This document shows positions 1-54,285 of a stretch of 64,000 nt of DNA, piece by piece. This DNA comes from Parcubacteria bacterium C7867-008. Its GTDB lineage: Bacteria > Patescibacteriota > Minisyncoccia > Phycocordibacterales > Phycocordibacteraceae. Below the pieces are notes generated by a model. The model did no database searches, was not told the DNA's origin, and saw only the letters and a list, made by a program, of their open reading frames with translations. Each line of letters opens with the position of its first letter. Positions within the stretch are counted from its first letter, which is position 1. Made by a program: the position numbers and the translations under genes. The DNA lies in assembly GCA_001189215.1 (NCBI GenBank), contig LFCR01000006.1, forward strand, positions 840 through 64,839. Direction: 5' to 3'.

Positions 1-376
1 AGGCTCAACCGAAGTGTTCCCAAGGCCCCCGACGGCCGGTGGCCAGGTTATGGTCCCCTGGATACGAGCAGCCAGTCCAGGTCCGGGTCTCGTTATTACA
101 GACAACCTATTGCCAGCACCAAGTGCCGATGATTCAGGATTGAAGGCGTGGCTCAGTAGCAACGGTAACGGAAGATATCCGATTTCATTGGAATCGAGTC
201 ACAGGCAGTACGCGCTTGAAGATACAACTCCTATCAAGAAATCAAGTGTATTGCTGGCCTCAGTTCTGGTCGCATCTTCGTGGGTCACTGGCCTCTGGGG
301 CAGTGTATGGTCTTGGATTCTATTAGTGCTGCACCTCTAACCCCCTGTATCGACAAGAGACGTAATCAATAAAATA

Positions 377-3513: not shown

Positions 3514-4713
3514 ATGAAGCGATCCGTCCTCACCCTTGCACTCCTCCTCGCATTATTTGTAAGTACAGTACCCGTACTTGCTAAGGCCCCTACTGGATTC
3601 GAATCAGGTGTCTCAACCTCTGAACTACAGCAGGCGTATGCCGATGGCACTATACACATCCTTATCGTGCCCGGTCATGAACCGATGTATGGTGGTGCGG
3701 TCTATCAAGGGGTCTATGAACGCGAGTTAACAGTGGAGATCTCCAATAAACTGAGTCAACTTCTAGAACAGAATCCACACTATGAAGTCACCGTTGCTCG
3801 TACGGGCGATGCTTGGAACCCTTCTCTCAATAATTACTTTGATCGAAATATGAAATCGATCAAGAAGTTTGTTGATACACAGAAGAAACTTATGAAGAAG
3901 CTTGTGCGAAAAGGAACGGTGGAGGAGCGGGGAGAAGAGGAGCAGGTCGATCATGCGACTGCTCCAGATGATGTAGCGCTTCGACTATATGGCATTAACA
4001 AGTGGGCAAACGAAAATGATGTTGATCTCGTTCTTAGTCTTCACATAAACGATGCACCAGACCATGGTGAAGACACCCCAAGCGCGTATGCAGGATTTGC
4101 AGCATATGTACCTGATCCGCAATACGGGAATGCAGGACCATCACGTGACATAGCAGAAGCAATTGTTCCGCGCCTTTCTGCACTTAACGCAGTATCAACG
4201 CTTCCTGGAGAGGGAGATGGTGTGGTGGAAGATCAAGAACTTATTGCCATTGGCTCCTACGGAACACTATTAGTTCCAAGCGTACTTCTTGAGTACGGAT
4301 ATATCACAGAGCCTAAGTTCACCAATACTGAAGTACGAAAGACCGTGGCTGATGATTATGCATATCAAACGTATCTTGGTCTGCAGGATTTCTTCAAGGC
4401 TCCGATATCAACGAAGTACCCAACACTTGCGCTTCCATATCAGTTTGCTGGTACGCCTGCGGTTGGTAGTTCAAGTCCTGCTGTCTATTCTCTACAGGCA
4501 GGTCTACATACACTCGGCTTTTATCCAGCAGCTACTTCCTCATCAGCTATTGCAACACATACACCGTCACTCGCACTGTGTTCTGTCTCAGGTCTAATGA
4601 ACGGATGCACGATAGATGCAATCAAAGCGTTTCAGAAAAAGAATAGTCTTGAACAGACCGGTGCGCTGGGGCCAAAGACACGTACACTACTCAATTCTCT
4701 TATCGGTATTTAA
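3514..4713 (+). CDS. N-acetylmuramoyl-L-alanine amidase (Amidase_3 type) with C-terminal peptidoglycan-binding domain
   Basis: Signal peptide MKRSVLTLALLLALFVSTVPVLA. The HILIVPGHEPMYGGAVYQG ... LVLSLHINDAPDHGE blocks match the Zn-amidase_3 pattern (GHGG...E...H.NA). The C-terminal LHTLGFY...DAIKAFQKKNSLEQTGALGPKT resembles PG_binding_1. I chose the start at the internal Met (3514) because it gives a clean signal peptide. Confidence 0.75.
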   Translation: MKRSVLTLALLLALFVSTVPVLAKAPTGFESGVSTSELQQAYADGTIHILIVPGHEPMYGGAVYQGVYERELTVEISNKLSQLLEQNPHYEVTVARTGDAWNPSLNNYFDRNMKSIKKFVDTQKKLMKKLVRKGTVEERGEEEQVDHATAPDDVALRLYGINKWANENDVDLVLSLHINDAPDHGEDTPSAYAGFAAYVPDPQYGNAGPSRDIAEAIVPRLSALNAVSTLPGEGDGVVEDQELIAIGSYGTLLVPSVLLEYGYITEPKFTNTEVRKTVADDYAYQTYLGLQDFFKAPISTKYPTLALPYQFAGTPAVGSSSPAVYSLQAGLHTLGFYPAATSSSAIATHTPSLALCSVSGLMNGCTIDAIKAFQKKNSLEQTGALGPKTRTLLNSLIGI

Positions 4714-4721
4714 ATTAAAAA

Positions 4722-4742
4722 CCCCCCGACAATGCCGGGGGG
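4722..4742 (-). terminator. Rho-independent terminator hairpin (cccccc-g/loop/c-gggggg). The T-run follows on the minus strand and an A-run precedes on the plus strand, so it is possibly bidirectional.
   Basis: Perfect 7-bp G/C stem with a 7-nt loop. It sits immediately between the convergent amidase (+) and RTX-like (-) genes. On the minus strand it is followed by TTTTTAATTT. Confidence 0.7.
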
Positions 4743-4771
4743 TCTGTGACGCGGGATGCGTCGGAAGGTGC

Positions 4772-5341
4772 TTAGCCGAAGATCCAGTCGCTGCTGAACC
4801 CGGGGCCGAGCACGACCAGCTGGGTCTCAGCTCCACGGAGGATGAGGCGACCGTTCAGTTCGAACAAGCTGTCGTAGTAGGGTTCGTTGAGGAACCTCAC
4901 TTCATCGCCTTCTCGTGGATTGTAGTCGACGAAGTTGACGAGACCACGGCTGCCCAGATCGAGATCGATGTAGACGATGTCGGCGCCCGTGCCACCGTGG
5001 ATGGTGGAATTGACGCCTGCGACGATGGTGTCGTCACCGGTGCCGCCAGACAGGGAATTCCTGCCACGGCCACCGTCGATGAAATCGTCGCCATCACCAC
5101 CGTCGATGGTGTCATTGCCGCCGCTGCCGAAGGCAATGTCATCATCCTGTTCGAGGAACATGCGGTCGTCACCCTCACCGCCAAAGGCGATGTCGTCACC
5201 TTCACCGCTGTGCAGGCTGATGTCGTCGTCCGGGGAATTCCGGTCGAGCTGGTTGTAGTCGAAGACGTCGTCCTTGGCGCTGCCTTGGTACAAGATCCTG
5301 GGATCGAATTCCGGAGGCCGAGGCGGGATGGGAGTGCTCAT
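4772..5341 (-). CDS. RTX-type (hemolysin-type) calcium-binding repeat protein, small, on a GC-rich foreign-looking segment
   Basis: Contains multiple GGxGxDxux nonapeptides (GGEGDDRMF, GSGGNDTIDGGDGDDFIDGGRGRNSLSGGTGDDTIVAG, GGTGADIVY). The start is assigned to the second Met because AAGGAG lies 7 nt upstream of it. GC is visibly about 60% against about 45% in the flanks. Confidence 0.6.
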   Translation of the reverse strand: MSTPIPPRPPEFDPRILYQGSAKDDVFDYNQLDRNSPDDDISLHSGEGDDIAFGGEGDDRMFLEQDDDIAFGSGGNDTIDGGDGDDFIDGGRGRNSLSGGTGDDTIVAGVNSTIHGGTGADIVYIDLDLGSRGLVNFVDYNPREGDEVRFLNEPYYDSLFELNGRLILRGAETQLVVLGPGFSSDWIFG

Positions 5342-5409
5342 CTGGAAGCTCCTTGTTGTTCCGTCCATAAAATAACATTTATATATAAAAAGTCAATAGT
5401 AGCATCGAG

Positions 5410-6579
5410 ATGCTCTATACTGAGGTTTCTAGCCCCATTTCCATGAAACAGACTAAAAAACGGATTGTTGCAGCATTTAAGAAAGCAGGTGCTCGTATAG
5501 AAACAAAAAGTCGCGTAAAGCTTAAGAATAAAGATGATATTTCACTTTGGTATACCCCGGGGGTAGGGGCAGCATCAGAGCACCTTGCTGCTCATCCAGA
5601 GGATGCACGCAGTATGTCCGTAAAGCGAAACTCAGTGGCAGTTGTTTCAGATGGTTCAGCAGTACTTGGTCTCGGAAATATCGGTCCCTATGGCGCACTT
5701 CCGGTTATGGAAGGGAAAGCACTTATCTTCCGAGAGATGGCAGGTATTGATGCGTGGCCCATTGTGCTTGATACTCAAGACCCTGATGAAATCATTCGCA
5801 CAGTACTCGCTATCGCTCCATCATTCGGTGGTATCAATCTAGAAGACATTAAAGCACCGCAGTGTTTTGCGGTTGAGAAGGCACTTATCGAGAAGCTTTC
5901 TATTCCTGTGATGCATGATGATCAGCACGGAACGGCAATCGTTACGCTTGCGGCACTTATAAACGCAGCGAAAGTAGTAAAGAAGAAGCTGCCTGCGCTT
6001 CGCGTGGTGATATCAGGTGCCGGTGCTGCTGGTACTGCAGTTGCTCTTCTGCTTCGCGCAGCTGGTATCACCGACATTATTGTGCTTGATCGTGCTGGAG
6101 CCCTCTATGTTGGTCGTCCTGATATGAACACAGACAAACAAGGACTCGCGCTTGTTACCAACCCACGCAAAGCCATAGGAGATCTAGCTACGGTTCTAAT
6201 GGGAGCAGATGTGTTTATTGGAGTATCTGGTCCGGATCTCCTTACCGCAGATCATATACGTAGCATGGCAGGCAAGGCTATTGTCTTTGCTCTTTCAAAT
6301 CCAGTTCCAGAGATCATGCCAGACGAAGCAAAGAAGGGTGGTGCGTTTATCGTGGGTACAGGACGATCTGACTTCCCAAACCAGATAAACAACGCCCTGG
6401 TATTTCCTGGTATTTTCCGTGGTGCCCTTGATAAGGGAGTAACGAGTATTACACAGGAGACAAAAGTACGTGCTGCCAAGGCCCTTGCTTCACTTGTTAC
6501 AAACCCTACCGCAAACAAGATTGTTCCCGATATCTTTGATAAGCGGGTGGTCCCCACAGTTGCAAAGGCAGTTCGCTAG
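5410..6579 (+). CDS. maeA: NAD(P)-dependent malic enzyme (short bacterial/archaeal type)
   Basis: LWYTPGVGAASEHLAAHPEDA, AVVSDGSAVLGLGNIGP, DAWPIVLDTQD, GINLEDIKAPQCF and the Rossmann stretch VISGAGAAGTAVA match malic-enzyme N- and NAD-binding domains. The real start may be the Met at 5443 (MKQTKK). Confidence 0.85.
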   Translation: MLYTEVSSPISMKQTKKRIVAAFKKAGARIETKSRVKLKNKDDISLWYTPGVGAASEHLAAHPEDARSMSVKRNSVAVVSDGSAVLGLGNIGPYGALPVMEGKALIFREMAGIDAWPIVLDTQDPDEIIRTVLAIAPSFGGINLEDIKAPQCFAVEKALIEKLSIPVMHDDQHGTAIVTLAALINAAKVVKKKLPALRVVISGAGAAGTAVALLLRAAGITDIIVLDRAGALYVGRPDMNTDKQGLALVTNPRKAIGDLATVLMGADVFIGVSGPDLLTADHIRSMAGKAIVFALSNPVPEIMPDEAKKGGAFIVGTGRSDFPNQINNALVFPGIFRGALDKGVTSITQETKVRAAKALASLVTNPTANKIVPDIFDKRVVPTVAKAVR

Positions 6580-17047: not shown

Positions 17048-17551
17048 ATGACATCTGTATCTTCTGCGGCACGACGCGGTTTCACTCTCATCGAGCTCCT
17101 CGTCGTTATCGCCATCATCGGTATTCTCTCTTCTGTAGTGCTCGCATCTCTCAACACAGCACGTAACAAGGGAGCTGACGCTTCAGTGAAATCAAACCTC
17201 GGCGAAGCACGCGCTCAGGCTGAACTTTTCTACGACGCAAACGGTAACAAGTACCTTGTCGCTGCAGGTGCAACTACTGACGTTTGTGCTCCTACTGGCC
17301 TCGTTGGCGGTGTTAAGGGTATTGCAACATCAGTAACTGCAGCAGCTGCTGCAACTGGCGCAACATACACCGGTACACTTGCTAACCCTAGTACCGCTAC
17401 TGTTGCTGCTTGTCACGCACTTGCTGACGGTAGCGCATGGGCAGCTTCTGCTCCTCTCAAGGCAACTACGGGTTACTACTGTGTTGACAGCACTGGTAAC
17501 GCTACCAGCACTGCAACAGCACTTGCTGGAGGTATTGCAGTTTGCAGCTAG
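17048..17551 (+). CDS. Type IV major pilin, paralog 1
   Basis: Class III signal RRG/FTLIELLVVIAIIGILSSVVLASL with Glu+5, and a C-terminal Cys pair. Confidence 0.85.
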   Translation: MTSVSSAARRGFTLIELLVVIAIIGILSSVVLASLNTARNKGADASVKSNLGEARAQAELFYDANGNKYLVAAGATTDVCAPTGLVGGVKGIATSVTAAAAATGATYTGTLANPSTATVAACHALADGSAWAASAPLKATTGYYCVDSTGNATSTATALAGGIAVCS

Positions 17552-17575
17552 TCTCCAACTGGCAACTCTTGTGCG

Positions 17576-17604
17576 GAAAGAAAGCGCCGAAAGGCGCTTT
17601 CTTC
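17576..17604 (+). terminator. Perfect 13-bp stem/GAAA tetraloop hairpin between pilin 1 and pilin 2 (attenuating terminator)
   Basis: GAAAGAAAGCGCC-GAAA-GGCGCTTTCTTC. U-rich 3' arm. Confidence 0.55.
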
Positions 17605-17625
17605 ATATACGTAATCCCCACGGAG

Positions 17626-17655
17626 TAGGAGGGGGTATAAAGTATCTCGTATACT
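17626..17655 (+). promoter_or_regulatory. Putative promoter TAGGAG-N18-TATACT, 7 nt before the pilin-2 ATG (leaderless-type)
   Basis: The same -35-like hexamer, spacer length and position relative to the ATG recur upstream of pilins 3 and 4. Confidence 0.45.
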
Positions 17656-17662
17656 GAAACGT

Positions 17663-18169
17663 ATGACTCCTTCGTGCGCTCATACGCGCGGTTTCACTCT
17701 CATCGAGCTCCTCGTCGTTATCGCCATCATCGGTATTCTCTCTTCTGTGGTGCTCGGGGCTCTTAATTCAGCGCGCAACAAAGCAGCCGATGCAGCCATA
17801 AAATCGAATCTAGAAAATGCACGAAAGCAAGCAGCACTTTTTTATGAAACGAACGGCGGTAGGTATGTTGGTGCTGCAGGTACTGCAACAGACGTTTGTT
17901 CGCCACTTGCTTCGGTCGGGAGCCCTGCGGTAAAAGGTATTTACGGTTATGTTTCTGCTGCTGCAACTGCAGCCGGCATCTCACCCACAGTAGTCATGAA
18001 TGGTACTGATAGTTCAGCAATCGCTGCTGCTTGTCATGCAAATGCTGCGGTGTGGGGAGCTGAGGTACCACTCAAATCCAATCCCTCACTTAATTTTTGC
18101 GTCGATAATTATGGGACTGCAACCATTACTCCAACGGTTCTTAATGGTGCTTTTGCTACGTGCAGCTAA
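17663..18169 (+). CDS. Type IV major pilin, paralog 2
   Basis: TRG/FTLIELLVVIAIIGILSSVVLGAL. The mature N-terminal 25 aa are near-identical to paralogs 1, 3 and 4; the C-terminal domain diverges. Confidence 0.85.
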   Translation: MTPSCAHTRGFTLIELLVVIAIIGILSSVVLGALNSARNKAADAAIKSNLENARKQAALFYETNGGRYVGAAGTATDVCSPLASVGSPAVKGIYGYVSAAATAAGISPTVVMNGTDSSAIAAACHANAAVWGAEVPLKSNPSLNFCVDNYGTATITPTVLNGAFATCS

Positions 18170-18181
18170 TCCACATGTACA

Positions 18182-18217
18182 TAGGAATGAATAGCAACAT
18201 ATACGTATAATACGTAT
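18182..18217 (+). promoter_or_regulatory. Putative promoter TAGGAA-N18-TATAAT plus tandem palindromes ATACGTAT-A-ATACGTAT abutting the pilin-3 ATG
   Basis: The -10 TATAAT (18206-18211) ends 6 nt before the ATG. Two copies of the self-complementary octamer ATACGTAT overlap the -10 and reach the start codon, consistent with an operator. Confidence 0.45.
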
Positions 18218-18718
18218 ATGACTTCACTACGCGTGTTCACACGCGGTTTCACTCTCATCGAGCTCCTCGTCGTTATCGCCATCATCGGTATTCTCTCTTC
18301 TGTGGTGCTCGCATCTCTCAACACAGCACGTAACAAGGGAGTTGATGCTGCGGTAAAGACAAATCTTGGTGAAGCACGTGGTCAAGCTGAACTTTTCTAC
18401 GACGCAAATAATTTTCACTATGTGGGGACAGCAGGTACGGTTGATGATGTTTGTTTCTCAGGTGCATCAGTAGGAGGTGTACGTGGTATCTATGGATCAG
18501 TATCTTTTGCAGGAACATCTAGCGGTGGTTCACCAACAGTTGCAATGACAGGTTCCCCGAGTTCTCCAACAGAAGCTGCGTGTCATGCGGACATGACTGC
18601 ATGGGCAGCATCAGCTCCTCTTCGTCATCAGGTGAATATGTATTACTGCGTAGATAGCACGGGTATTGCGACCGTTACACCAAACGTTCTTCCTGCAGGC
18701 CAGTTGTATTGCAGCTAA
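18218..18718 (+). CDS. Type IV major pilin, paralog 3
   Basis: MTSLRVFTRG/FTLIELLVVIAIIGILSSVVLASLNTARNKG. The 5' ~200 nt are nearly identical to paralog 1. Confidence 0.85.
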   Translation: MTSLRVFTRGFTLIELLVVIAIIGILSSVVLASLNTARNKGVDAAVKTNLGEARGQAELFYDANNFHYVGTAGTVDDVCFSGASVGGVRGIYGSVSFAGTSSGGSPTVAMTGSPSSPTEAACHADMTAWAASAPLRHQVNMYYCVDSTGIATVTPNVLPAGQLYCS

Positions 18719-18730
18719 TCCCCATATCGG

Positions 18731-18766
18731 TAGGAGGGAATACCTATATATACGTATAATACGTAT
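18731..18766 (+). promoter_or_regulatory. Putative promoter TAGGAG-N18-TATAAT plus tandem ATACGTAT palindromes abutting the pilin-4 ATG
   Basis: Same architecture as 18182-18217. The 47 nt upstream of the ATG and the first ~75 nt of the coding sequence are near-identical to the pilin-3 copy. Confidence 0.45.
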
Positions 18767-19306
18767 ATGACTTCACTACGCGTGTTCACACGCGGTTTCA
18801 CTCTCATCGAGCTCCTCGTCGTTATCGCCATCATCGGTGTACTCTCAAGTATTGTTCTTTCATCACTGAACCAAGCAAGGAATAAAGGTAATGACGCTGC
18901 AGTGAAATCAAACCTTGATAATGCGCGTGCACAGGCGCAGCTTTTCTATGACACCAATGGAAATCGTTTCGTGGTAACACCAGGAACCGCAACTGATGTG
19001 TGTGCAGCAACAGCGTCAGTCGGCTCCCCAGCGGTTTCTGGCGTCTTTAGTTTCGTAGCAGCAGCTGCGCGTGCAGCAGGCTATGGAACGGTAAATAACA
19101 CTATTACCGTTACGGGCGGGGCAGCAGTTGTAACGTGTCACGCGTGTTATACCGGTCAGGCCAGTACGGACTGCACGACAGAAGGACGCTGGGCAGCTGA
19201 AGCACCTCTCAAAACAACTGGTCAGGTGTATTGTGTGGACTCTTCTGGTTTAGCAAGTACTACCACTCAAACACTTGGTGCAGGTGATACTAAATGCGCT
19301 GGATAA
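18767..19306 (+). CDS. Type IV major pilin, paralog 4
   Basis: MTSLRVFTRG/FTLIELLVVIAIIGVLSSIVLSSL. Longer C-terminal domain with four Cys residues. Confidence 0.85.
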   Translation: MTSLRVFTRGFTLIELLVVIAIIGVLSSIVLSSLNQARNKGNDAAVKSNLDNARAQAQLFYDTNGNRFVVTPGTATDVCAATASVGSPAVSGVFSFVAAAARAAGYGTVNNTITVTGGAAVVTCHACYTGQASTDCTTEGRWAAEAPLKTTGQVYCVDSSGLASTTTQTLGAGDTKCAG

Positions 19307-19312
19307 GCTTTC

Positions 19313-20077
19313 GTGATTTCTCCACTCTTTATCTCATTCATCTTGTTCGTACTTGGGGCGCTCAGCGCTAGTTTTACTGGTGTTGTTGCAGAACGTATAC
19401 ATACGGGACAATCGTGGGTACGAGGAAGATCACGCTGTAATTCATGTGGAACCCTACTTGATGCGCGTGATCTTTTTCCCGTTATATCTTGGTTCCTGTA
19501 TCTGGGACGATGTCGTACCTGCCGTGCACGAGTGCCAATGACGTATGTCGTCACAGAGATTGCACTTGGTACATCATTTGTTCTTGCCTATACTACTATT
19601 GGACTCACATCGGTACTTCCATTCTTTCTCGTTGGTCTGACCGTCTTACTGTTCATAGTTCTCTATGATCTTCGGCATATGGTGGTCCCCACAGGATCAT
19701 CAAACAGTCTCATTGTGCTCTCTCTCATTATCGCGTTTCTTAGTGCGCACAGTAGTAAGGAATTTGGTCTTGTTCTAGTATCTTCTGGCGTAATTGCGCT
19801 CTTCTTTTTCCTTATGCATGTGCTTTCGAAGGGTAGGGCAATGGGGCTTGGAGACGCACCAGTTGCACTCGCACTTTCGCTAATGGTTGGTACATATGCC
19901 TTCGCTGGGGTGATGTTCTCTTTTTGGATTGGTGCGTTGTACGGCATAGTTGTATTGAGTACAAGGCGCGGAGGGCCTAGAATGGGTATAGAGGTTCCAT
20001 TCGTGCCGTTCTTGGCACTTGGCTATCTCCTCGCTTTCTTCTCTACATGGAATCCATTCGCACTCGTTCTCTGGTAG
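19313..20077 (+). CDS. pilD: Prepilin peptidase PilD (A24 family)
   Basis: N-terminal tetra-Cys CNSCG...CRTCR zinc motif and 6-8 TM helices. Confidence 0.85.
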   Translation: MISPLFISFILFVLGALSASFTGVVAERIHTGQSWVRGRSRCNSCGTLLDARDLFPVISWFLYLGRCRTCRARVPMTYVVTEIALGTSFVLAYTTIGLTSVLPFFLVGLTVLLFIVLYDLRHMVVPTGSSNSLIVLSLIIAFLSAHSSKEFGLVLVSSGVIALFFFLMHVLSKGRAMGLGDAPVALALSLMVGTYAFAGVMFSFWIGALYGIVVLSTRRGGPRMGIEVPFVPFLALGYLLAFFSTWNPFALVLW

Positions 20078-21790: not shown

Positions 21791-22998
21791 TTCGTACTCG
21801 AACACCAAAAGGCTTCACGCTTCTCATAGCAATTATTCTTTCAACCGTTGTTCTCTCGGTCGGCCTCTCATTGCTTGATGTGGCATATAAGCAAACCATT
21901 CTTGCTTCGACTGCAAAACAATCAGAGCTTGCTTTCTATAATGCAGACTCCGCACTTGAGTGTGCACTGTACTATGATCAGAAATTTAATGCCTTCGATT
22001 ATGACTCTCCTATAGGAGCAGGTGCAATTACCTGCAGCAGTACTCCTGTTACGAACTACACCAGAGATATAAGTGATCCGACAAAACACATCACCATCTT
22101 TGCACTCCCCTGTGCTGATGGAGGTTCCTACGCAACTACCACCATATATAAGTATCCAGGAGGAGCTACTGCACTCTATGCCAATGGTTTCAACACGTGT
22201 AATGCAGCTGACCCCGCACGCATTGAACGCGGCCTCAAAGCTACATATGGTGATCCTGCAGCAGCTCCTGGCCCAGGACCTGGTGGAAGTGCAAGTTATT
22301 TGATCGTAGGTGGCGGTGGTGGCGGTGGTGCAGGTGGCGGTGGTGGTGGCGGAGGCGGACAGGTTAATACCGGCTCACTCGCTCTGACAGGAGGTACTAC
22401 CTATCCGATTGTAGTTGGTACTGGGGGTGTAACGGGTGTTTCTGGTGGTCCTGCAGCAAACGGCACACTCAGTTCTGCCTTTTCGGTAACCTCTCTTGGT
22501 GGTCGTGGTGGAAGTCTGGTAGCTAGAGACGGTGGAGCGTCGGGTTCAGGTAATGCAGGTGGAGCAACAGGGCCTATTGGTAGCGGTGCTGGCGGTGGCG
22601 GTCAGGCTAGTGTGGGCCAAGATGGGCCTGTGATGGGTGGCGGTAATGGTGGTACAGGAGTAAATAACGCACTTTCTGGTGTGTCTGTTGGCTATGCAGG
22701 TGGTGGCGGTGGTGGTACCGGGCCGTCTGGTGGTCCGGCAGGATCTGCTACTCACGGCGCTGGCGCTGGCGGTGCAGCGGCAGTAGCAGGTGTTTCTGGA
22801 ACCGCAAATACGGGTGGCGGCGGTGGCGGCGGTGGAGGTAGTTTTGGTTCTGGACCGGGTGGTACTGGAGCCGATGGTGTGGTTATCGTGAGTTACCCAA
22901 CCGGCACTATCATAGGAGCAACAGGAGGCTCTAAAACTACGTCAGGCGGAAATACCATCCACACATTCGTCACAAGTGGCTCTCTCGTAATTCCATAG
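21781..22998 (+). CDS. PilX-like minor pilin with long Gly-rich C-terminal extension
   Basis: The N-terminus PKG/FTLLIAIILSTVV lacks Glu+5. It is followed by KQ..LAS.AKQSELAFYNADSALECALYY, matching PilX-like N-domains. Residues ~160-370 are poly-Gly and Gly/Ser/Thr/Ala low complexity. Confidence 0.55.
   Translation: MAMIRTRTPKGFTLLIAIILSTVVLSVGLSLLDVAYKQTILASTAKQSELAFYNADSALECALYYDQKFNAFDYDSPIGAGAITCSSTPVTNYTRDISDPTKHITIFALPCADGGSYATTTIYKYPGGATALYANGFNTCNAADPARIERGLKATYGDPAAAPGPGPGGSASYLIVGGGGGGGAGGGGGGGGGQVNTGSLALTGGTTYPIVVGTGGVTGVSGGPAANGTLSSAFSVTSLGGRGGSLVARDGGASGSGNAGGATGPIGSGAGGGGQASVGQDGPVMGGGNGGTGVNNALSGVSVGYAGGGGGGTGPSGGPAGSATHGAGAGGAAAVAGVSGTANTGGGGGGGGGSFGSGPGGTGADGVVIVSYPTGTIIGATGGSKTTSGGNTIHTFVTSGSLVIP
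22300..22372 (+). repeat. (GGY)n glycine-codon microsatellite inside the PilX-like gene
   Basis: An uninterrupted run of ggt/ggc/gga codons encoding about 24 consecutive Gly. A slippage-prone simple repeat. Confidence 0.6.
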
Positions 22999-23042
22999 AT
23001 TTGATAATTTCCTCATTCCGTATTTACGCATACAATAGATAG

Positions 23043-25058
<2,016 letters not shown>

Positions 25059-40217: not shown

Positions 40218-43055
40218 ATGGCACTTACCAACAACCTTAAACCGCAAGTAGATCTCCCCGTCTGGGAGTGGTGTCGCTTTGCGCCTACGGCATCAGTGGC
40301 CTTGTCTGCATTCGCTACGGCTGATGATGGTAGTGCTCGACATATCTACTACATCTCTGCTTCAACCTTCTATCGCTATGATACGTATGCAGATTCTTGG
40401 CAGCAGCTTGCAACCCCTAACGTAGCACCGCTCACCACTCTCGCACTCAGGTACACCGGATATCGCGGGTACCATGGTCGAATTCTCAGTGCCGGCGCAA
40501 CAAGTGTTCAGATAGGTGGTCTTCGCGGGAACACCCTCAACGGAAAAACAATCAGAATACTCAGTGGCTCTGGTATCGGACAAGACCGTGTCCTTACTTC
40601 CACGGGTGAGACGGTACACGACATGGGGGTTATCACAGGAACTACCACACTCACCCTTGCTGACTCCACTAAGAAATGGAAATTCAATCAATGGTCTGGA
40701 TATACCGTTGGTATTACGTTCGGAACAGATGCCACACAGTATAAGAAGATCCTGTATAACGACACCACGACGCTCTATATAGGTGATGCAAACCTACAGC
40801 CTCATGATCCATGGAATAATCAGGCATTTGCTGCTGTGGCACCATATGCGGTACCAGTTACCACCGCCGGTTCGCAAGCGCACTATCAGATTCTTTCTAT
40901 GAGTTACTCGGTTGCTGCGTGGGACACTACACCTGATTATCGTTCGAACTACACAACGGCAACAGGTGGACTGTATCTCATTTCTTCTTCAGCATCAGCA
41001 CCTTTCTTTACTCTGCAGTACTACGACATCATTCATGATTCCTGGCAGACCAAGACGTGTAACCAAGGACTACTTGCAGCGGCATTGGGTACAGACTGTA
41101 CCTTTGAACGTTTGGCAAAAACGGGAACAGCCTTTCTAAGCTCGACCGCTACGGCGGGTGCCGCACGTACTCTTACTGATACGGTGCAGACTATGACAGT
41201 CGATAGATACTCGAATTATCGACTTCTCATTACAGGAGGTACAGGCGTGGGACAAAGTAGGAGAATAATTTGTAATACAGCAACTGTCTTCACACTAAAC
41301 AAAGCCTGGGATACCAACCCAGACAACACTTCAACCTATGAAATATGGGGTGATTATGACAAAGCATTCCTCGCTGGAGGTGCAGCGGGTGCCATGTATC
41401 AATATTCCCCAAGCAACGATTTCTGGATGCAGGGTAGCAGTTTTGATGATGGTGTGGTTGCAAACATAGCCGTTAAGATGAATGGTTGGGAGGCATTAGG
41501 TGTAACAACTGGCGCCAGAATTGCAGCCGGTGTTACCGCCGTTAACGCAACACCAACAGCAGGCGGTACGGGTTATCTAGTAGGGGACATCCTGACTTGT
41601 TCTGTCGGTGGTACTGGTGCACGTGTGATTGTTACCGCAATTGCACCCACGGGTATTGTTTCGACAATAGAACTTGTGGCATCGGGTACGGTGACGGGCT
41701 TTACAACGGGTACTGGAAAGGCGACCACGGGTGGTACTGGATCAGGTTGTACGATTGAAATAACATCGATTGGTGCAACCTGTCTTATTACAACCGCATC
41801 AGCAAGCTGGTTTAAGACAGGAGATTCAGTAACATTCTCAGGATGTTCTGATGGTGCATACAATGCGGCACACACTATCCTTGGTGCAGGCTCAACCACC
41901 ACATTTGATGTTGCAACCTCTGCAGCAGGTTCTATGGCCGCATCTAACTCACAATCAACAACGGTTATTGTGGACCCAACGAAGAGCTGGACGGTAAACG
42001 AACATGTGGGTAAGCTTGTGCATCTCTCGGTTGCGGGTACTGCTCCTACCGCTCAGATTCGTTGGATAACGGCTAACACTGCAACCACCCTCACGGTGGC
42101 AACCATCGTTGCTGGTGTAAACGGAACATCGAAGTACGCTATCTATGACTCAAAGGTCTTTGGAACAGATAACCAGTTCAAGCCTGCTAACCAGCAGAAC
42201 TGGGGTCATGCATCTGGTGGTTCAACTACAACACTCGCAGACTCCTCGAAGAGTTGGGTTGTTAACTCTTGGGCAGGGTATAAGTTACGTATTGAGTCTG
42301 GAACTGGTTTTGCATCAGGAATAATCTCAATAACCTCCAATACTGCAACGACACTTACGTATACAACACAGTCATTCACACCAGATGCAACTACTCATTA
42401 CGAGATTGCGGATAGCTGGGGTCTAATGACAGCAGCATCAACAACAACGGTAACTGAGACAGCAACTAAAAACTGGACGGTGAACATGTGGGCAGGTAAG
42501 AGGATCCGTATTAGTGGGGGAACTTCTCCTGGACAAGAGGTCTCTATTACTTCAAATACTGCCACTGTCCTAACAACGGCAACATTAACGCTTCCTGATA
42601 CCACCTCAACGTATGCCATCTTGGGTATACCGGCCCGTGGTGCGGGTACACAGCTCTTATGGATCTGGGGGAATACCGATGCCACAACAAAAGGAAAGTA
42701 TGTTCTTTTGCCAAGAGGTGGCGCATCAAACAGCGCGGATCTTTACGATGTTACGACAGCACGTTGGTTATACGGTTACTTCTTCTCACCTCAAGCTGAA
42801 ACATTCACGACCGGTTCTATGTATGCGTATGACGGTGTGAATACTATATATATGCAGAAGGATGCAACAGGTAGGGTGATGGCGTATGACTTCTCAACAA
42901 ATGCAATCACAACACTAGGCACCATACCGTATGGTCACTCAACGGCGATAATAGGGAACCGCATGGAGATTATAGAAACAACAGACGGTCTGAAGTATTT
43001 GTACATGATGCGACACACAGGATCTGAAGTCTGGCGTATGTTGATATTCTTTTAA
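40218..43055 (+). CDS. Large (945 aa) Thr/Gly-rich protein with five copies of a ~50-aa K(S/N)W-x-VN-x-WAG-x7-GTG-x-GQ-x3-I-x-SNTAT-x-LT repeat
   Basis: Five repeat instances in the translation: TKKWKFNQWSGYTVGI..., SNYRLLITGGTGVGQSRRIICNTATVFTLN, TKSWTVNEHVGKLVHL...ANTATTLTVA, SKSWVVNSWAGYKLRIESGTGFASGIISITSNTATTLTYT, TKNWTVNMWAGKRIRISGGTSPGQEVSITSNTATVLTTA. I recognise no domain. Start 7 nt after the upstream stop. Confidence 0.5.
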   Translation: MALTNNLKPQVDLPVWEWCRFAPTASVALSAFATADDGSARHIYYISASTFYRYDTYADSWQQLATPNVAPLTTLALRYTGYRGYHGRILSAGATSVQIGGLRGNTLNGKTIRILSGSGIGQDRVLTSTGETVHDMGVITGTTTLTLADSTKKWKFNQWSGYTVGITFGTDATQYKKILYNDTTTLYIGDANLQPHDPWNNQAFAAVAPYAVPVTTAGSQAHYQILSMSYSVAAWDTTPDYRSNYTTATGGLYLISSSASAPFFTLQYYDIIHDSWQTKTCNQGLLAAALGTDCTFERLAKTGTAFLSSTATAGAARTLTDTVQTMTVDRYSNYRLLITGGTGVGQSRRIICNTATVFTLNKAWDTNPDNTSTYEIWGDYDKAFLAGGAAGAMYQYSPSNDFWMQGSSFDDGVVANIAVKMNGWEALGVTTGARIAAGVTAVNATPTAGGTGYLVGDILTCSVGGTGARVIVTAIAPTGIVSTIELVASGTVTGFTTGTGKATTGGTGSGCTIEITSIGATCLITTASASWFKTGDSVTFSGCSDGAYNAAHTILGAGSTTTFDVATSAAGSMAASNSQSTTVIVDPTKSWTVNEHVGKLVHLSVAGTAPTAQIRWITANTATTLTVATIVAGVNGTSKYAIYDSKVFGTDNQFKPANQQNWGHASGGSTTTLADSSKSWVVNSWAGYKLRIESGTGFASGIISITSNTATTLTYTTQSFTPDATTHYEIADSWGLMTAASTTTVTETATKNWTVNMWAGKRIRISGGTSPGQEVSITSNTATVLTTATLTLPDTTSTYAILGIPARGAGTQLLWIWGNTDATTKGKYVLLPRGGASNSADLYDVTTARWLYGYFFSPQAETFTTGSMYAYDGVNTIYMQKDATGRVMAYDFSTNAITTLGTIPYGHSTAIIGNRMEIIETTDGLKYLYMMRHTGSEVWRMLIFF

Positions 43056-43949: not shown

Positions 43950-44681
43950 ATGGAGGAGATTGATGTATATGTTGCAGAATACGGCGACTACCTAGAAGAA
44001 ATACGTAAGCGACTCTATCGTGTCGTGATAGTGTTTATTGTTTCATTCCTGATTGGCCTTTTCTCCACAAACCTGTTCGTCCACTTCTTCTTAACCTTCC
44101 TTAAGGTTAAGGACGTAATTATAGTTGCCACGTCACCGTTCCAGCTTTTGGATCTTGCCATGACCACAGGATTCTTCCTGGCAACACTTATTACGATACC
44201 GTTTGCTATACAGCAGACTTATACATTCTTGAGTGGGGGGCTGTTGCCACAAGAGCGGAAGATATTCTTCACGCTCATTCCGCTCACGGTCGTCTTGTTC
44301 TGTATTGGATTTACCTACGGATTCACCGTCATGTACTACGCGGTGCAGGTTATTGCCCAAGTGAACATTGGATTTGGTATAGCCAACCTGTGGAATGTTA
44401 CCCAGTTTATCTCGCAAATACTCCTCACCTCAGCTCTACTAGGTCTGATATTTGAATTTCCAATCATATTAACGCTTCTTATACGGCTAGGGGTCTTTCC
44501 GGTGTCATTTCTACGAGCAAAAAGAAGGGTGGCTATTGCCATAATTGTCATTTTTGTTGCTTTACTTCCCCCAACTGATGGACTATCCTTTATGGTAATG
44601 TCCTTGCCGTTGGTGGGCATCTATGAGCTGACGATATTCCTCAACTCATTCTACAAACGGAAAGTACCCTTAGAAAAATAA
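43950..44681 (+). CDS. tatC: Sec-independent protein translocase TatC
   Basis: 243 aa with 6 TM helices. Conserved N-terminal amphipathic region (HLEELRKRL-like: YLEEIRKRLYRVVIV) and typical loop lengths. Confidence 0.8.
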   Translation: MEEIDVYVAEYGDYLEEIRKRLYRVVIVFIVSFLIGLFSTNLFVHFFLTFLKVKDVIIVATSPFQLLDLAMTTGFFLATLITIPFAIQQTYTFLSGGLLPQERKIFFTLIPLTVVLFCIGFTYGFTVMYYAVQVIAQVNIGFGIANLWNVTQFISQILLTSALLGLIFEFPIILTLLIRLGVFPVSFLRAKRRVAIAIIVIFVALLPPTDGLSFMVMSLPLVGIYELTIFLNSFYKRKVPLEK

Positions 44682-44860: not shown

Positions 44861-44999
44861 TCTCGCAACGAGACGGATACGGCCTCTAAATCAGTCAGAA
44901 ATGACGGGTATAGGGGCCTTCTTCATGCATTCCTAATGGTAGAATTACAAGAACAGTGACTTTTCCGTAGGGATGAGTATCTGGGGCATAGCGTGTGAT

Positions 45000-47900
45000 A
45001 TGAATCTACATTTTCCCTACAAAGCCTCCAATCACATTCCTGCCTGGCGGGCTTTTCTACTGATACTTACATTTCTCTCACTACCGCTCATAACCTTTGC
45101 TGCATATCAAGAATTTCTCCCGGGCGCTCAAGTGCAAATAGGGGAGTTTGTATACGATGACGACTTCCAAGCAACCACAACGGCAAATTGTACTGTAACG
45201 GTATACGACCCAACAGGAGCGGTTGCGGTAAATGCAGCATCTATGACGGCAACAGCGAACAGCTGGTATTCATACTCATTCACCCCTGATTCTATTGAGG
45301 GTACCTGGCCTGCAATTATGTCTTGCGGGTCTCAACTAAGCGGAGATCTTATAAAAGGCGATAAAACATTTATTGTTACTTCAAACATTGTTTCCTCTAC
45401 ATCAGTAGCAGCACTCGTTAATGCAAACACAGCAACGGTGGTAGCTTCAGCAAGTTCCTCTCTCGCTGCCACATTACCGGTTTCGATATGGGGGTACTCA
45501 GCGCGAACGCTGACATCTTTTGGCACACTCGTGAACGACATCTGGTCTAACGGCACACGATCCCTCACATCAGGGGTCGCAATAGCTAATGATATTTGGG
45601 CTGCAACAACACGCACCCTTACTGGTGCAGGTCTCGACTCAGGTTCACTCGCAGTCCAGTCTGATGTAACAACCGCCTCATCGTCACTAGGCGCTGCAAT
45701 AACAAACTCTCAGACAGCAATTAATGCCAACACCAATGCGACGGTACTCACTGCCACTACGTCTCTTGCAGCGATCATAAATGCTAATACCAATACGATT
45801 GTGGGCACTGCATCAAGTTCAATCGGAAGTTCGCTTGCATCTATTGCGTCATCAATCGTTTCGATCCCAACCAATGTCTGGGCAGCAGCAACACGTACCC
45901 TCACGTCAGGCACGAGTATTGCGGCAGACATTTGGGCTTCAACAACAAGAACCCTCACGGGAGCGGGACTTGATACTGGATCACTTGCGGTACAGTCTGA
46001 CGTAAGTACCGCATCATCATCTCTTGGCGCGGCCATCACAAATAGTCAAGGTGCTATTAATACAAATACAAATACGATAGTAGGTAATGCATCAACCTCA
46101 CTCGGAATTTCACTTACTTCGATCGCGTCATCAATTACTTCCATTCCTGCTAACGTCTGGGCAGCGGGCACACGCACACTCACTGGCTTCGGTACGTTGG
46201 CAGCGGATGTCTGGACGAATGGTACTCGCACCCTTACTGGTGCAGGTCTCGACTCAGGTTCACTCGCTACACTGGGTGATCTAAATACAGCATCCTCATC
46301 GATAACCGCTTCTGTAAACGCAAACACTAATAGCGCTATCCTTACTGCAACATCTTCAATAGCGTCAGTAGTAAATGCAAACACTAATACGATAGTAGGG
46401 AATGCCTCATCATCCCTTGGTACCTCTATTGCAAGCGTGGCATCTTCAATTGCCTCTATCCCAACCAATGTCTGGGCAGCAGCAACCCGTACTCTAACTT
46501 CAGGCACGAGTATTGCAGCAGATATCTGGGCTTCAACAACAAGAACCCTCACGGGAGCAGGCCTAAGTTCAGGCTCACTCGCCGTACAATCTGACGTAAC
46601 CACTGCGTCATCATCTCTCGGTGCTGCGATCACAAACTCTCAGACAGTAATAAACAGCAACACCAACAGTGCCGTACTTGGTGCGTCAACATCACTTGCA
46701 GCAGTGGTTAACGCTAACACCAACACTATTGTTGGGAATGCTTCAACCTCACTCGGCACGACACTTACTTCAATTGCTTCTTCCATCACATCAATACCAA
46801 CCAATGTCTGGGCAGCTGGCACACGTACCCTCACCGGATTTGGCACACTTGCAGCGGATGTATGGACATCAGGAACACGCACTCTCACGGGAGCAGGCCT
46901 AAGTTCAGGCTCACTCGCCGTACAATCTGACGTAACCACCGCTTCGTCATCACTAGGTGCTGCGATCACAAACTCTCAGACAGCAATTAACGCAAACACT
47001 AATGCGACTGCACTCACCGCGAGTACGTCACTTGCAGCTGTTGTAAATGCAAATACGAATACAGTAGTGGGTAACGCATCTACTTCACTTGGCGCATCGC
47101 TTACTTCAATAACATCTTCTATCGCAGCACTACCTGCATCAGTCTGGAACGTTGCTACCAGCACTCTCAATACCGCCGGCTCAATCGGCAAGCAGCTTGC
47201 ACTCAATGTTGACGCTGCAATTTCTAGTGTCACGGGAGGGGTTGGTTCACTTTCAGCTGCCGATGTCTGGGGCTATTCAACACGTACTCTCACCGGAGCT
47301 GGTCTCTCATCAGGATCTCTCGCCGTACAGTCTGACGTAACCACCGCTTCGTCATCACTAGGTGCTGCGATCACAAACTCTCAGACTGCCGTAAATGCAA
47401 ACACAAATAGCGCAGTCCTAACTGCATCAAGCTCGGTAGCTGCAGTTGTTAACGCAAATACCAACACTATTGTTGGTAACGCATCTACATCACTCGGCAC
47501 CTCAATTGCTAGTGTTGCCTCATCAATTGCTTCAATACCTACTAACGTCTGGGCAGCAGGTACGCGCACACTCACTGGCTTCGGAACACTAGCTGCTGAT
47601 GTTTGGGTCAGTGGTACTCGCACACTCACCGGCGCTGGTCTAAGTTCAGGCTCACTCGCAGTCCAGTCTGATGTAACAACTGCATCATCATCTATTGGCT
47701 CAGCCATCACAAACTCTCAGACTGCAATTAATGCGAATACGAACTCTGCCGTACTAACTTCAAGTACATCACTCGCTGCAGTCATTAATGCGAACACTAA
47801 TACTCAGGTACTGAACGCTTCCACGTCTCTTGGAACGACCCTTACTTCAATTGCCTCGTCCATTACGTCTATCCCAACAAACGTATGGGCTGCAGCAACC

Positions 47901-51973: not shown

Positions 51974-52507
51974 ATGACCTCACTTAACCCCACCGTCATT
52001 GTGGTTGTGGCGATACTCGCCCTATTTCTCATAAGTATTACAGTTTCCAAGTACGCGATACACGATAACTTCACTCGTACACGCTTCGTTATGAGTGCAT
52101 TGTTTGCATTCATAGTTGCTACGCTCACCATTTCATTCTGGCGGTTTGCATTTATGACACTCCCATATACCATACCCGCAATGCTTGCCGGTATTTTACT
52201 CGGATACCTTATCGGCGTACGTACTGAGCAACAGAAGATCGTAACCAACGGTATTGAGCACTATATGGAACGGTTTGCACATATTGAACACAAGGACGTG
52301 AAGAACCTAACCTGGTGGAGTGTTATCAACTTCTATTCAATCATGTGCGGTCTTGTCCTCATCAACCTTATCGGTTTCACCAATGTAATCCTTCAAGGAT
52401 CACCAGGGTTCATTATTGGAACGAGTGTCGTGGGGGCTGCATTTATTGGTTCTATTCTTCCGTACCTATATCACCTCTGGACACTTCCTTGTGGTGAACG
52501 TTGCTAA
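51974..52507 (+). CDS. Hypothetical 5-TM membrane protein
   Basis: Hydropathy only. Confidence 0.3.
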   Translation: MTSLNPTVIVVVAILALFLISITVSKYAIHDNFTRTRFVMSALFAFIVATLTISFWRFAFMTLPYTIPAMLAGILLGYLIGVRTEQQKIVTNGIEHYMERFAHIEHKDVKNLTWWSVINFYSIMCGLVLINLIGFTNVILQGSPGFIIGTSVVGAAFIGSILPYLYHLWTLPCGERC

Positions 52508-53346
52508 GAGAGTGCAATTGCTAGACTGAATCCGACCAACAGAATAAGAGAGTAGAAGAACGTCTTTCGTGCCCATCGGGCATCGTTTTGTACAAAGAAT
52601 CCTGCGCCCGCAATAGAAACCCATCCAATGGTGAGAATGGTCATAGGAATTGTATAGATGAGACCAAGAGTATTAACGAGATACAGTGCGTACACAGCAA
52701 CAGCAAATAAGACTGCATGCACAAACATTAATACTTTCGTTGGCAGTATCCCCATAGACACGGGCATCACCGGAAGCTTTGCATTGCGATAGTCCTCTAA
52801 GCGGAAGATTGCGATAGCAAAGAAATGCGTCATCTGCCAACACACAAGAATGATAAAGAGGAGAACAGCTGTTTCATTCAATACATTCATAACCGCCACA
52901 TATCCCACTACCGGCGGCACAGCACCCGCTGCAGCTCCGATAATCGTACTGTGTACCGTCAGACGTTTTGCGGGAGTATAGAGTGCAATGTATGCGAACA
53001 CTCCTAAGAGCGTAATAAGGAAGGTGAGGAGGTTGGTAAAGAAGTAGAGCGAACCAAGACCGATCACAATGAGTACTGCACCAAATATAAGTGCACCACG
53101 TACAGGGATCCTTCCATTTGGAATAGCACGTCCTTGGGTACGTTTCATGTGCACATCAATATCCCGATCCATCACGTTATTTACTACGCATGCTCCAGCA
53201 ATAGAAAGGGAAAGACCAAGTATGGTGGCTACTAGAAGAGGGAAGGATACCGCTACTCCAGCAGCAAAGACGAAGGCAGCAAGCGCCGTCATCGCATTTC
53301 CATATACCATTCCTGGCTTTGTGAGGCGATAGTATTCTTTCATCAA
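52504..53346 (-). CDS. cyoE: Protoheme IX farnesyltransferase (heme O synthase)
   Basis: UbiA-family motif NNVMDRDIDVHMKRTQGRAIPNGRI with 8-9 TM. Last gene of the oxidase operon. Confidence 0.85.
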   Translation of the reverse strand: MMKEYYRLTKPGMVYGNAMTALAAFVFAAGVAVSFPLLVATILGLSLSIAGACVVNNVMDRDIDVHMKRTQGRAIPNGRIPVRGALIFGAVLIVIGLGSLYFFTNLLTFLITLLGVFAYIALYTPAKRLTVHSTIIGAAAGAVPPVVGYVAVMNVLNETAVLLFIILVCWQMTHFFAIAIFRLEDYRNAKLPVMPVSMGILPTKVLMFVHAVLFAVAVYALYLVNTLGLIYTIPMTILTIGWVSIAGAGFFVQNDARWARKTFFYSLILLVGFSLAIALS

Positions 53347-53717
53347 TGTAGTTCGTGTGCGGGTGACACCATACCATCCTCATACAGCTCCTGCGTGGTG
53401 AGGGGCATCATATGGAGATGTTCAAGATTACTCATGATCCAAAGGGTACCCACTATAACAATCGCAATGATTAGTCCTGTTATCGAGAAGATAACGAGGT
53501 TCCATCGCGGCTTTGATTCTGAACCAAGATGAAGAAAGAATATCAACTGAACAAACAGCTGAATGAGCGCGGTGATAACAATCGCAGGAACAGCTAACGT
53601 ACCCAGCTGCGGTGCTACCCAAAATGCTAAGAGAGTGAGGAATATCGAAAGAGCAAAGCCCAGTACATATGAGCCCAGTGTTCCGTGCGGTATATCCGTG
53701 TGTGCGTGTTTGGTCAT
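53343..53717 (-). CDS. cyoD: Quinol oxidase subunit IV (CyoD/QoxD-like)
   Basis: 3 TM helices. N-terminus MTKHAHTDIPHGTLGSYVLGFALSIFLTLLAF resembles CyoD. Start at the internal Met to abut cyoC. Confidence 0.65.
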   Translation of the reverse strand: MTKHAHTDIPHGTLGSYVLGFALSIFLTLLAFWVAPQLGTLAVPAIVITALIQLFVQLIFFLHLGSESKPRWNLVIFSITGLIIAIVIVGTLWIMSNLEHLHMMPLTTQELYEDGMVSPAHELH

Positions 53718-54283: not shown

Positions 54284-54285
54284 AC

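Follow-up and report, generated by a model that had tools for sequence, protein, structure and literature searches.

Positions 4714-5409 of a 64,000-nucleotide stretch from Parcubacteria bacterium C7867-008 (contig LFCR01000006.1, positions 840 to 64,839; hereafter the window) hold one complete transcription unit for a small RTX-type repeat protein, which lies on the minus strand, a correction to its earlier description. The open reading frame (ORF; 4772-5341, minus strand) runs from an ATG at 5341 to a stop codon at 4772-4774 and encodes 189 amino acids; its GC content is 0.60, its GC content at third codon positions (GC3) is 0.75 and its third-position C content is 0.61. A Shine-Dalgarno sequence, AAGGAG, can be read at 5349-5354 (minus strand), 7 nucleotides before the ATG, within a block (CTCCTTGTTGTTCCG) that is identical in the sister genome, C7867-007. 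A promoter scan placed a sigma-70-type promoter at 5369-5396 (minus strand), with a -35 box TTGACT, a 16-nucleotide AT-rich spacer and an extended (TG) -10 box TATTTT (TGTTATTTT). Beyond the stop codon lies a 3' untranslated stretch (4746-4771, minus strand; 69% GC), in which a small hairpin, GACGC-GGGAT-GCGTC, is predicted by folding at 4748-4762, and this leads into an intrinsic terminator found by terminator scan at 4709-4745 (minus strand), a G/C hairpin with a stem of 12 pairs (4745-4719), eight of them G-C, followed by a T-run. The RNA of the 3' end folds at -29.4 kcal/mol, with z = -4.5 against shuffled sequences. The ribosome-binding site (5354-5349 in reading order) and the hairpin with its T-run had both been described in the first-pass annotation of the window, and with ORF and promoter also found its description of an intact, self-contained gene with its own expression signals holds.

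The gene was also correctly placed between two unrelated housekeeping genes, identified by Pfam as one for an Amidase_3/PG_binding_1 protein on the plus strand, which ends at 4713, and one for malic enzyme; from comparison with relatives, the true start of the latter is probably the ATG at 5443 and not that at 5410. AT-rich borders, reported for both sides, are present on the promoter side only (5342-5409, 34% GC), the terminator side being GC-rich (62%). In the public record the protein appears as KND49148.1, under the name 'alkaline phosphatase' and with a 198-amino-acid start; this upstream ATG, at 5368, adjoins the -10 box and lacks a ribosome-binding site. The protein sequence is identical in the Joint Genome Institute (JGI) and NCBI records. 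The C7867-008 genome (808 kb, 48% GC) comes from Hanford groundwater (PMC4508563), and the paper describing it makes no mention of the RTX gene.

The product matches the Pfam family HemolysinCabind (PF00353; E = 8.7e-13, 48.4 bits against a cutoff of 23), in agreement with the hemolysin-type GGxGxDxUx repeats first seen by eye. Its N-terminal 44 residues (5210-5341, minus strand) consist of a proline-rich start (PIPPRPPEF) and a DDxFD[YF] motif, with a predicted local distance difference test (pLDDT) score of 72-91. Nine nonapeptide units follow (residues 45-124; 4970-5209, minus strand), six or seven of them canonical GGxGxDxUx, and are predicted to form a calcium-binding beta-roll; at the DNA level they make up a repeat family with 27/54-nucleotide spacing and 62-75% identity. 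The C-terminal 65 residues (4775-4969, minus strand) form a non-repeat module, ...VDYNPREGDEV...LVVLGPGFSSDWIFG, of predicted beta strands (pLDDT 63-93) that would cap the roll. Over the last 70 residues, identity is 34-38% to a C-terminal module (...DFNxAEGDRV...LVGV...GWIFG) that recurs in many longer calcium-binding proteins of the RTX type. An AlphaFold model built with 30 homologues (pLDDT 88.5; predicted template modelling score 0.82) has a short strand each 9 residues between residues 41 and 125 (pLDDT 94-98) and then the C-terminal beta module. The Asp and Gly ligand positions are present in the repeats, and the model is that of a protein with some nine calcium-binding nonapeptide turns and a C-terminal beta module as cap.

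All significant matches among solved structures were RTX rolls: CyaA blocks IV-V, the lipases LipA and PML, AlgE R-modules and the C-terminal domains of PrtC/serralysin. The nonapeptide beta-roll of Bordetella CyaA needs a C-terminal cap to fold. RTX block V of CyaA (PDB 5cvw, 9p0c, 6sus, 7rah) gave both the best sequence match to a solved structure (E 8.9e-18 and 1.6e-15) and the top Foldseek matches, with template modelling (TM) scores that are low (0.2-0.37) because the repeat registers differ; CyaA is, however, a 1706-amino-acid acylated toxin with enzymatic and pore-forming parts, whereas the window protein is roll and cap only. The Azotobacter AlgE R-modules (PDB 2agm, 2ml1-3; Foldseek TM 0.32-0.45, phmmer E ~1e-5) are of similar size (150-180 residues) and likewise combine an RTX roll with a C-terminal part, but they are attached to a catalytic A-module and help to bind alginate, and the window protein has no partner domain. 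No NCBIfam curated family matched above its threshold. Two enzymatic or toxic identities were rejected: a pore-forming RTX toxin (NF033943; 37.1 bits against a cutoff of 1000, the match covering only the repeat region of a protein of just 189 amino acids) and a serralysin-type metalloprotease (NF035945; 17.3 bits against a cutoff of 500, with no peptidase domain in Pfam).

The closest overall likeness is to the small stand-alone RTX calcium-binding proteins of Proteobacteria and Cyanobacteria, of which Rhizobium NodO is the classical secreted example. Proteins of this kind from Pseudorhodobacter (P0335) and Phenylobacterium (P0340) have the same HemolysinCabind repeats and C-terminal module (...DFNxAEGD.V...LVGV...WIFG), are 33-38% identical to the window protein and, like it, have neither an N-terminal signal peptide nor an enzymatic domain. 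The window protein differs from them in being shorter (189 versus 250-350 amino acids), in its proline-rich N-terminus, in being encoded at one chromosomal position in one clade with a codon usage decoupled from the genome, and in its host, a Parcubacterium of the candidate phyla radiation (CPR), a group presumed to have no outer membrane. By analogy with these proteins we regard it as a new, small and clade-restricted member of the well-known RTX family that would function as a calcium-dependent extracellular or surface module.

By eye, no N-terminal signal peptide was seen, and no ABC exporter, HlyD (membrane fusion protein) or TolC family was present among the 33 window ORFs scanned, the window being 64 kb of a genome of ~0.8 Mb; a type IV pilus cluster and TatC are, however, encoded in it. 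Signals for type I secretion are C-terminal and poorly conserved, so that secretion of the RTX protein cannot be judged from its sequence. The initial remark that no secretion-signal domain was visible therefore carries little weight, and the last 70 residues match the C-terminal module of many RTX proteins. Export, if it takes place, would be post-translational, via the C-terminus and by a transporter encoded outside the window. Within the window, tatC (43950-44681), second only to the RTX gene in GC3 (0.50), and a glucosaminidase-like gene are flanked by two very large plus-strand ORFs with high GC at second codon positions (40218-43055, 945 amino acids; 44973-49187, 1404 amino acids), the larger of which carries a further calcium-binding module, a dockerin type I domain, at its end.

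The local GC excess claimed for 4714-5409 is real: the segment has 57.6% GC and the RTX ORF 60.0%, against 46.3% for the window and 46-48% for the flanking genes. In the sliding-window checks proposed at first pass, composition was not uniform, and this segment had both the highest GC anywhere in the 64 kb (z = 3.8) and, once base composition was normalised, the most deviant tetranucleotide usage (z = 4.5). Amino-acid content was ruled out as the cause, because GC at the first (0.64) and second (0.41) codon positions is ordinary for window ORFs. The excess lies in GC3, at 0.75 compared with 0.40 +/- 0.07 over 58 ORFs (z = 5.3); host codon usage imposed on the same amino-acid sequence gives an expected GC3 of 0.36, and third-position C stands at z = +13 in simulation. 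This excess is even along the gene (0.67-0.90 per 30 codons, non-repeat ends included), and the rise in GC ends at the 5' end of the ORF while on the 3' side it continues across the untranslated region and the terminator.

The bias favours C-ending codons and not G+C at large. At four-fold degenerate sites of the RTX genes of the two low-GC hosts, C7867-008 and C7867-007, C makes up 0.57-0.59 (host 0.15-0.20), T 0.14-0.22 (host 0.33-0.38), G 0.16-0.22 (host 0.13-0.16) and A 0.05 (host 0.32-0.33), the window copy having 0.57 C and 0.16 G. Among two-fold codons that end in a pyrimidine, the C-ending fraction in both is 0.81-0.88 (host 0.38-0.45); the purine-ending codons for Gln, Lys and Glu show no consistent bias. 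The window gene uses AGC for nine of 13 Ser; it has GAA for seven of nine Glu, no TCG and no GCG, which is unlike the high-GC relatives examined, where GAG, GCG and TCG reach fractions of 0.73, 0.52 and 0.33. The ratio of AT-coded to GC-coded residues (FYMINK/GARP) in the window protein leans to the former, at 1.48 versus 0.84 and 1.03, but too few residues are counted for this to be significant and amino-acid composition was discarded as a clock of residence time.

The age of this composition can be gauged from C7867-007. Between the two sisters, protein identity is 94.8% for RecG, 93.4% for PilM and 90.5% for malic enzyme; across nine neighbouring genes it is 57-95%, with synonymous divergence (dS) of 1.45 to infinite, that is, saturated, and GC3 of 0.34-0.48; backbone GC3 is ~0.37-0.48 in both genomes. 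The RTX gene of C7867-007 had gone unannotated and was reached via a look-up of the malic-enzyme cluster. It lies at L165:8019-8594 (L165 being contig LFCQ01000006.1) and encodes 191 amino acids ending in ADWIFG; the annotation of this genome has at this place a 610-amino-acid 'malic enzyme' (KND50346.1, L165:8001-9833), of which the first 221 residues are an antisense translation of the RTX gene. The two RTX genes are only 60% identical in DNA and 47% in protein, with a ratio of nonsynonymous to synonymous divergence (dN/dS) of 0.46 against 0.02-0.22 for the neighbours, and yet GC3 is 0.75 in C7867-008 and 0.83 in C7867-007. Their surroundings are better preserved than the ORF, at 81% DNA identity over terminator and 3' untranslated region and 76% over promoter and 5' untranslated region, and the terminator hairpin is kept in C7867-007 via changes on both arms. 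A block of ~48 nucleotides (window 4746-4793, minus strand; L165:7992-8041) that spans the last six codons, the stop codon and the hairpin of the 3' untranslated region is ~94% identical; it may be an RNA element that has been conserved, or just part of a terminator under constraint.

The RTX gene was therefore already in the common ancestor of C7867-008 and C7867-007, and it was probably present much earlier. As foreign composition cannot survive neutrally through saturated synonymous divergence, its high GC3 has been maintained. An import from a higher-GC relative that had yet to ameliorate was considered and dropped as the main explanation, the sister genome having the same anomaly across saturated dS. 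It is plausible that the clade ancestor acquired the gene from a diderm bacterium long ago, though GC content gives no evidence of this.

Searches for further members with the protein and with a profile covered 5.8 billion proteins. The profile recovered only three family members, at 295-328 bits; the next match, P0369 (176 bits), was rejected as a member because it is unrelated, with a different architecture and a position beside transposase genes. Two of the genomes concerned are L002 (GCA_964446735.1), with the gene order NUDIX, malic enzyme, RTX, PG_binding_1 protein and RecG, and L163, a 1.6-kb Logan contig with the order malic enzyme, RTX and RecG; their proteins have in common with the window protein the proline-rich start and the D-D-x-F-D-[FY] motif, and the C7867-007 gene is the fourth copy. 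Best matches outside the sister genome are 37-40% identical and belong to the same clade, so that a homology check on the product identified no high-GC donor lineage; the nearest homologues outside the clade include proteins of Rhodobacterales and Caulobacterales. An exhaustive HMMER search of 1.84 billion representatives returned 79,452 matches but was swamped by giant multi-repeat RTX proteins, and is informative at the level of repeats only and not on orthologues or donors. A search of the literature on RTX proteins in CPR bacteria or Patescibacteria found nothing relevant, and a further JGI contig, L001, is identical to the window over 9673 bases and so adds no population information. The RTX gene is one of a very small family known only from a single clade of Parcubacteria. 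The L002 locus itself has two further genes far above its GC3 background of 0.55, one of 176 amino acids (L002:5282-5812; 0.90) and a 477-amino-acid MGS/amidohydrolase gene (L002:14720-16153; 0.75), and its recG (L002:12355-14556) is split into ORFs of 523 and 158 amino acids by a frameshift or an assembly error.

The RTX gene stands head-to-head with the malic-enzyme gene in each of the four genomes, and its promoter has one common layout, TTGAC(T/G), then a spacer rich in AT, then TGTTAT. In another relative, a nearly identical promoter (ATTGACTTTATATATACAAATGTGATATAAT, L099:228-262) precedes an unrelated gene for a 192-amino-acid secreted protein, which weakens promoter conservation as proof of orthology: the layout appears to be a strong promoter typical of the clade, and its conservation reflects this as much as common descent. 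GC3 of the RTX gene and of its host backbone is 0.75 and 0.39 in the window, 0.83 and ~0.42 in C7867-007, 0.82-0.84 and 0.55 in L002, and 0.76 and ~0.81 in L163, a high-GC host with which the gene agrees in codon usage (all |z| < 1). It is most conspicuous in the window genome because backbone GC3 is lowest there, within a range of 0.39-0.78 over the eleven syntenic loci with values.

Related loci fetched with malic enzyme and amidase as queries share a backbone of RecG, amidase, malic enzyme, h143, NUDIX, DoxX and cupredoxin, which recurs in L004, L083-L088, L090 and L117. The interval between amidase and malic enzyme holds genes for large secreted proteins on the plus strand in L004, L083-85, L087 and L088 and for membrane proteins in L086, and is empty in L090 and L117; where the interval is occupied, the unrelated cargo amounts to 0.1-2.8 kb. 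Since the content of the interval differs among relatives, it is a spot of gene turnover and the RTX gene an accessory gene. Around the RTX gene no mobility genes and no flanking direct or inverted repeats were found, only the internal 27-nucleotide periodicity and the palindrome of the terminator; tRNA genes come no closer than 9595 and 27475, and the window junctions are too diverged from the empty sites of L090 and L117 to be aligned. In L083, L084 and L085, whose RecG proteins are mutually 93-95% identical, backbone GC3 is 0.78, 0.69 and 0.78, ~0.1 apart, and the orthologous cargo proteins of L083 and L084 (623 and 625 amino acids) are encoded with a GC3 of 0.70 and 0.80 against backbones of 0.78 and 0.69, decoupled in opposite directions. 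Genomic GC therefore shifts quickly relative to protein divergence in this group of Parcubacteria.

Given these observations, we weighed several explanations for the composition of the gene. A recent horizontal transfer from a high-GC donor was the reading favoured in the first-pass annotation; such a donor would be distant, among the Proteobacteria or Actinobacteria for instance, and the reading has on its side the GC3 of 0.75 in a host at 0.40, the tetranucleotide anomaly, nine related loci without the gene, and an architecture (RTX repeats with the C-terminal module) that is typical of diderms with type I secretion and has its nearest non-clade homologues in groups that include Rhodobacterales and Caulobacterales. 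This we now consider very unlikely. An orthologue with a GC3 of 0.83 occupies the same flanks in C7867-007 across saturated synonymous divergence, L002 and L163 share the position and a similar promoter, and this promoter is of the host clade's own type; the preponderance of GAA and the lack of GCG and TCG are unlike the high-GC relatives examined; and no mobility gene, tRNA gene or flanking repeat marks an insertion. Orthologues at the same position and with the same GC are thus found in C7867-007, L002 and L163, if not in all relatives. Compositional genomic islets that are taken for recent transfers resemble the gene in their atypical GC and codons, in being a single accessory gene with its own signals and in their absence from many relatives; of the usual marks of a genomic island, however, only the atypical composition is seen here, as the gene is present in the closest relative, has a C-specific bias and comes with neither mobility signatures nor an identifiable donor. 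That a high-GC fragment of another organism was joined into a Parcubacteria contig during assembly, as metagenome-assembled data and an abrupt change of composition might suggest, has a negligible chance of being correct, with gene boundaries, promoter and terminator intact, the identical sequence in a separate JGI record from the same sample, and the same arrangement in three other genomes from three other assemblies.

Maintenance by recombination has more in its favour, and we consider it unlikely rather than remote. Here the gene would be a hypervariable cassette between conserved ends, with alleles swapped within the population or received from higher-GC members of the clade, and with GC-biased repair of the resulting heteroduplexes, or donor composition, keeping GC3 high strictly within the variable part. 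The 60% DNA identity of the interior between ends of 81% and 76%, and the near-identical blocks of 30-48 nucleotides at both ends of the ORF, fit such a cassette, as do the arrest of the GC rise at the 5' end of the ORF and its extension through the 3' untranslated region and terminator; the content of the recG-to-malic-enzyme interval varies, with L083 and L084 cargo off the backbone GC3 by ~0.1 in both directions; and the codons of the RTX gene most resemble those of high-GC relatives, the gene being compositionally native to the high-GC genome of L163. GC-biased conversion and high-GC donors both predict equal enrichment of G and C, whereas the four-fold C/G ratio is 3.6 and 2.7 in the low-GC hosts, against ~1.1-1.4 in host genes and 1.4 in L163. 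The RTX flanks are not better conserved than some other intergenic regions of the sister pair (range 0.26-0.95), donors matching the flanks would have to be close relatives and so themselves low-GC, no closer allele was present among the 5.8 billion proteins, and the non-repeat ends of the ORF share the GC3 of the repeats. A different kind of constraint would be dual coding, in which A is avoided at third positions so that an antisense protein on the plus strand, co-directional with amidase and malic enzyme, stays readable. The in-register antisense frame is indeed free of stops in all four orthologues, where the other four frames have 1-11 (three genes checked) and ~7 would be expected under host codon usage; in the window this antisense ORF (4616-5446, plus strand, 276 amino acids) terminates at a TGA that shares bases with the start codon of malic enzyme (ATGA) at 5443, and in C7867-007 it is in frame with malic enzyme and annotated as the 610-amino-acid protein. 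NNC/NNY codons open this frame automatically, however, and to keep it open only TTA, CTA and TCA need be avoided, not every A-ending codon; the antisense product is a low-complexity sequence of V/A/D/E/G, the antisense ORFs of L002 and L163 stop long before malic enzyme is reached, and the Pfam match and conserved motifs are on the sense strand. The frame is open because the RTX gene is short of A-ending codons, which is no evidence of a second gene, and dual coding is in our view extremely unlikely.

On balance, the RTX gene is probably an old, clade-restricted and fast-evolving accessory gene, likely to be highly expressed, in which C-ending codons are actively maintained. A strong host-type promoter, the AAGGAG, the 189-amino-acid ORF and a double-hairpin terminator form a self-contained unit for a small RTX protein with a predicted beta-roll, the sequence of which evolves fast while its synonymous sites stay C-ending (less so T-ending) whatever the GC of the host. 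The maintaining force would most likely be selection on the codons of a strongly expressed gene with an Asp- and Gly-rich product. The four-fold C/G ratio of 2.7-3.6 points to selection on particular codons, as a high-GC donor or GC-biased conversion should raise both bases alike. There is one parallel in the window: the first pilin gene (17048-17551, with an N_methyl motif) uses NNC at two-fold codons at 0.81 against 0.42 +/- 0.10, and is the only other ORF among 59 with an RTX-like preference of this kind. Pilins are expected to be abundant, and this shared preference, together with the near-consensus promoter, the strong ribosome-binding site and the double-hairpin terminator, points to high expression and codon selection. 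The pilin gene belongs to four tandem pilin-like genes (17048-19306, plus strand) that lie 3' of PilM, PilB, PilT and PilC and 5' of a prepilin peptidase gene (19313-20077).

A number of observations weigh against maintained codon choice in an old resident. The pilin gene favours T and A over C at its four-fold sites (GGT 11, GGC 4; GCT 17, GCA 19, GCC 1); as a yardstick of expression it therefore accounts for the RTX bias at two-fold codons alone, and the four-fold preference for C has no parallel in the window. CPR bacteria are moreover expected to be slow growers with weak translational selection. The codons of the RTX gene fit the table of the high-GC relatives better than that of the host (log2 likelihood per codon of -1.47 versus -1.90), and given this fit an ancestry in a high-GC genome is possible. 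Identities among the RTX orthologues (37-47%) barely exceed those to generic proteobacterial RTX proteins, as can be seen from scores of 74 bits for P0350 and 77 bits for L163. The gene occurs in four of 13 syntenic loci, with at least nine related loci lacking it, and the RecG and malic-enzyme identity matrices are star-like (72-78% among the main lineages) and so give no order of gains and losses.

Elsewhere in the window, the strongest raw tetranucleotide outlier (z = 6.0) is a gene for a glycine-rich-domain protein (PF21722; 21781-22998, plus strand). It accounts for the only other stretch above 54% GC, 22001-23160, and its own GC is 0.65 at second and 0.33 at third codon positions, so that amino-acid composition explains the excess. 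The left edge of the window (1-120), proposed earlier as a second GC-rich patch, turned out to be the Pro/Gly/Ala-rich part of a beta-helix/NosD-like gene: the stretch has 61% GC, but it is no second patch because the whole gene has 50% GC and a GC3 of 0.46. By composition, a better candidate for a foreign gene than this edge is the histidine kinase gene (GAF/HisKA/HATPase_c) at 58400-60385 (minus strand), the low-GC outlier of the window, with a GC of 0.35, a GC3 of 0.26 and a tetranucleotide z of 4.3. A cytochrome oxidase cluster occupies 52504-57973 (minus strand), with COX1 at 54286-56253 (E 1.7e-144); for this CPR genome it has already been published, as the cytochrome bo3 ubiquinol oxidase of C7867-007 and C7867-008 (PMC4508563).

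The one unusual feature of the RTX gene is a codon usage decoupled from that of its host genomes, and this carries a caution for annotation: a textbook-looking GC island with its own promoter and terminator is here an old resident, which composition-based island callers would mislabel. Public annotation is already wrong at this locus, with the gene named 'alkaline phosphatase' in C7867-008 and missed in C7867-007 under a spurious 610-amino-acid malic-enzyme call on the opposite strand. A bolder reading, which we offer tentatively and with rather more doubt than confidence, is that a C-ending GC3 of ~0.8 kept through saturated divergence in hosts with a GC3 of ~0.4 reflects strong codon selection and very high expression of a protein exported without a classical type I system, a major and rapidly diversifying calcium-dependent surface or secreted factor that plausibly acts in cell contact. 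Should the RTX protein indeed prove abundant, CPR organisms, whose interactions are poorly understood, would have in it a candidate for a secreted or cell-surface factor, and its gene would be evidence for strong codon selection in reduced CPR genomes, where such selection is usually thought to be negligible.

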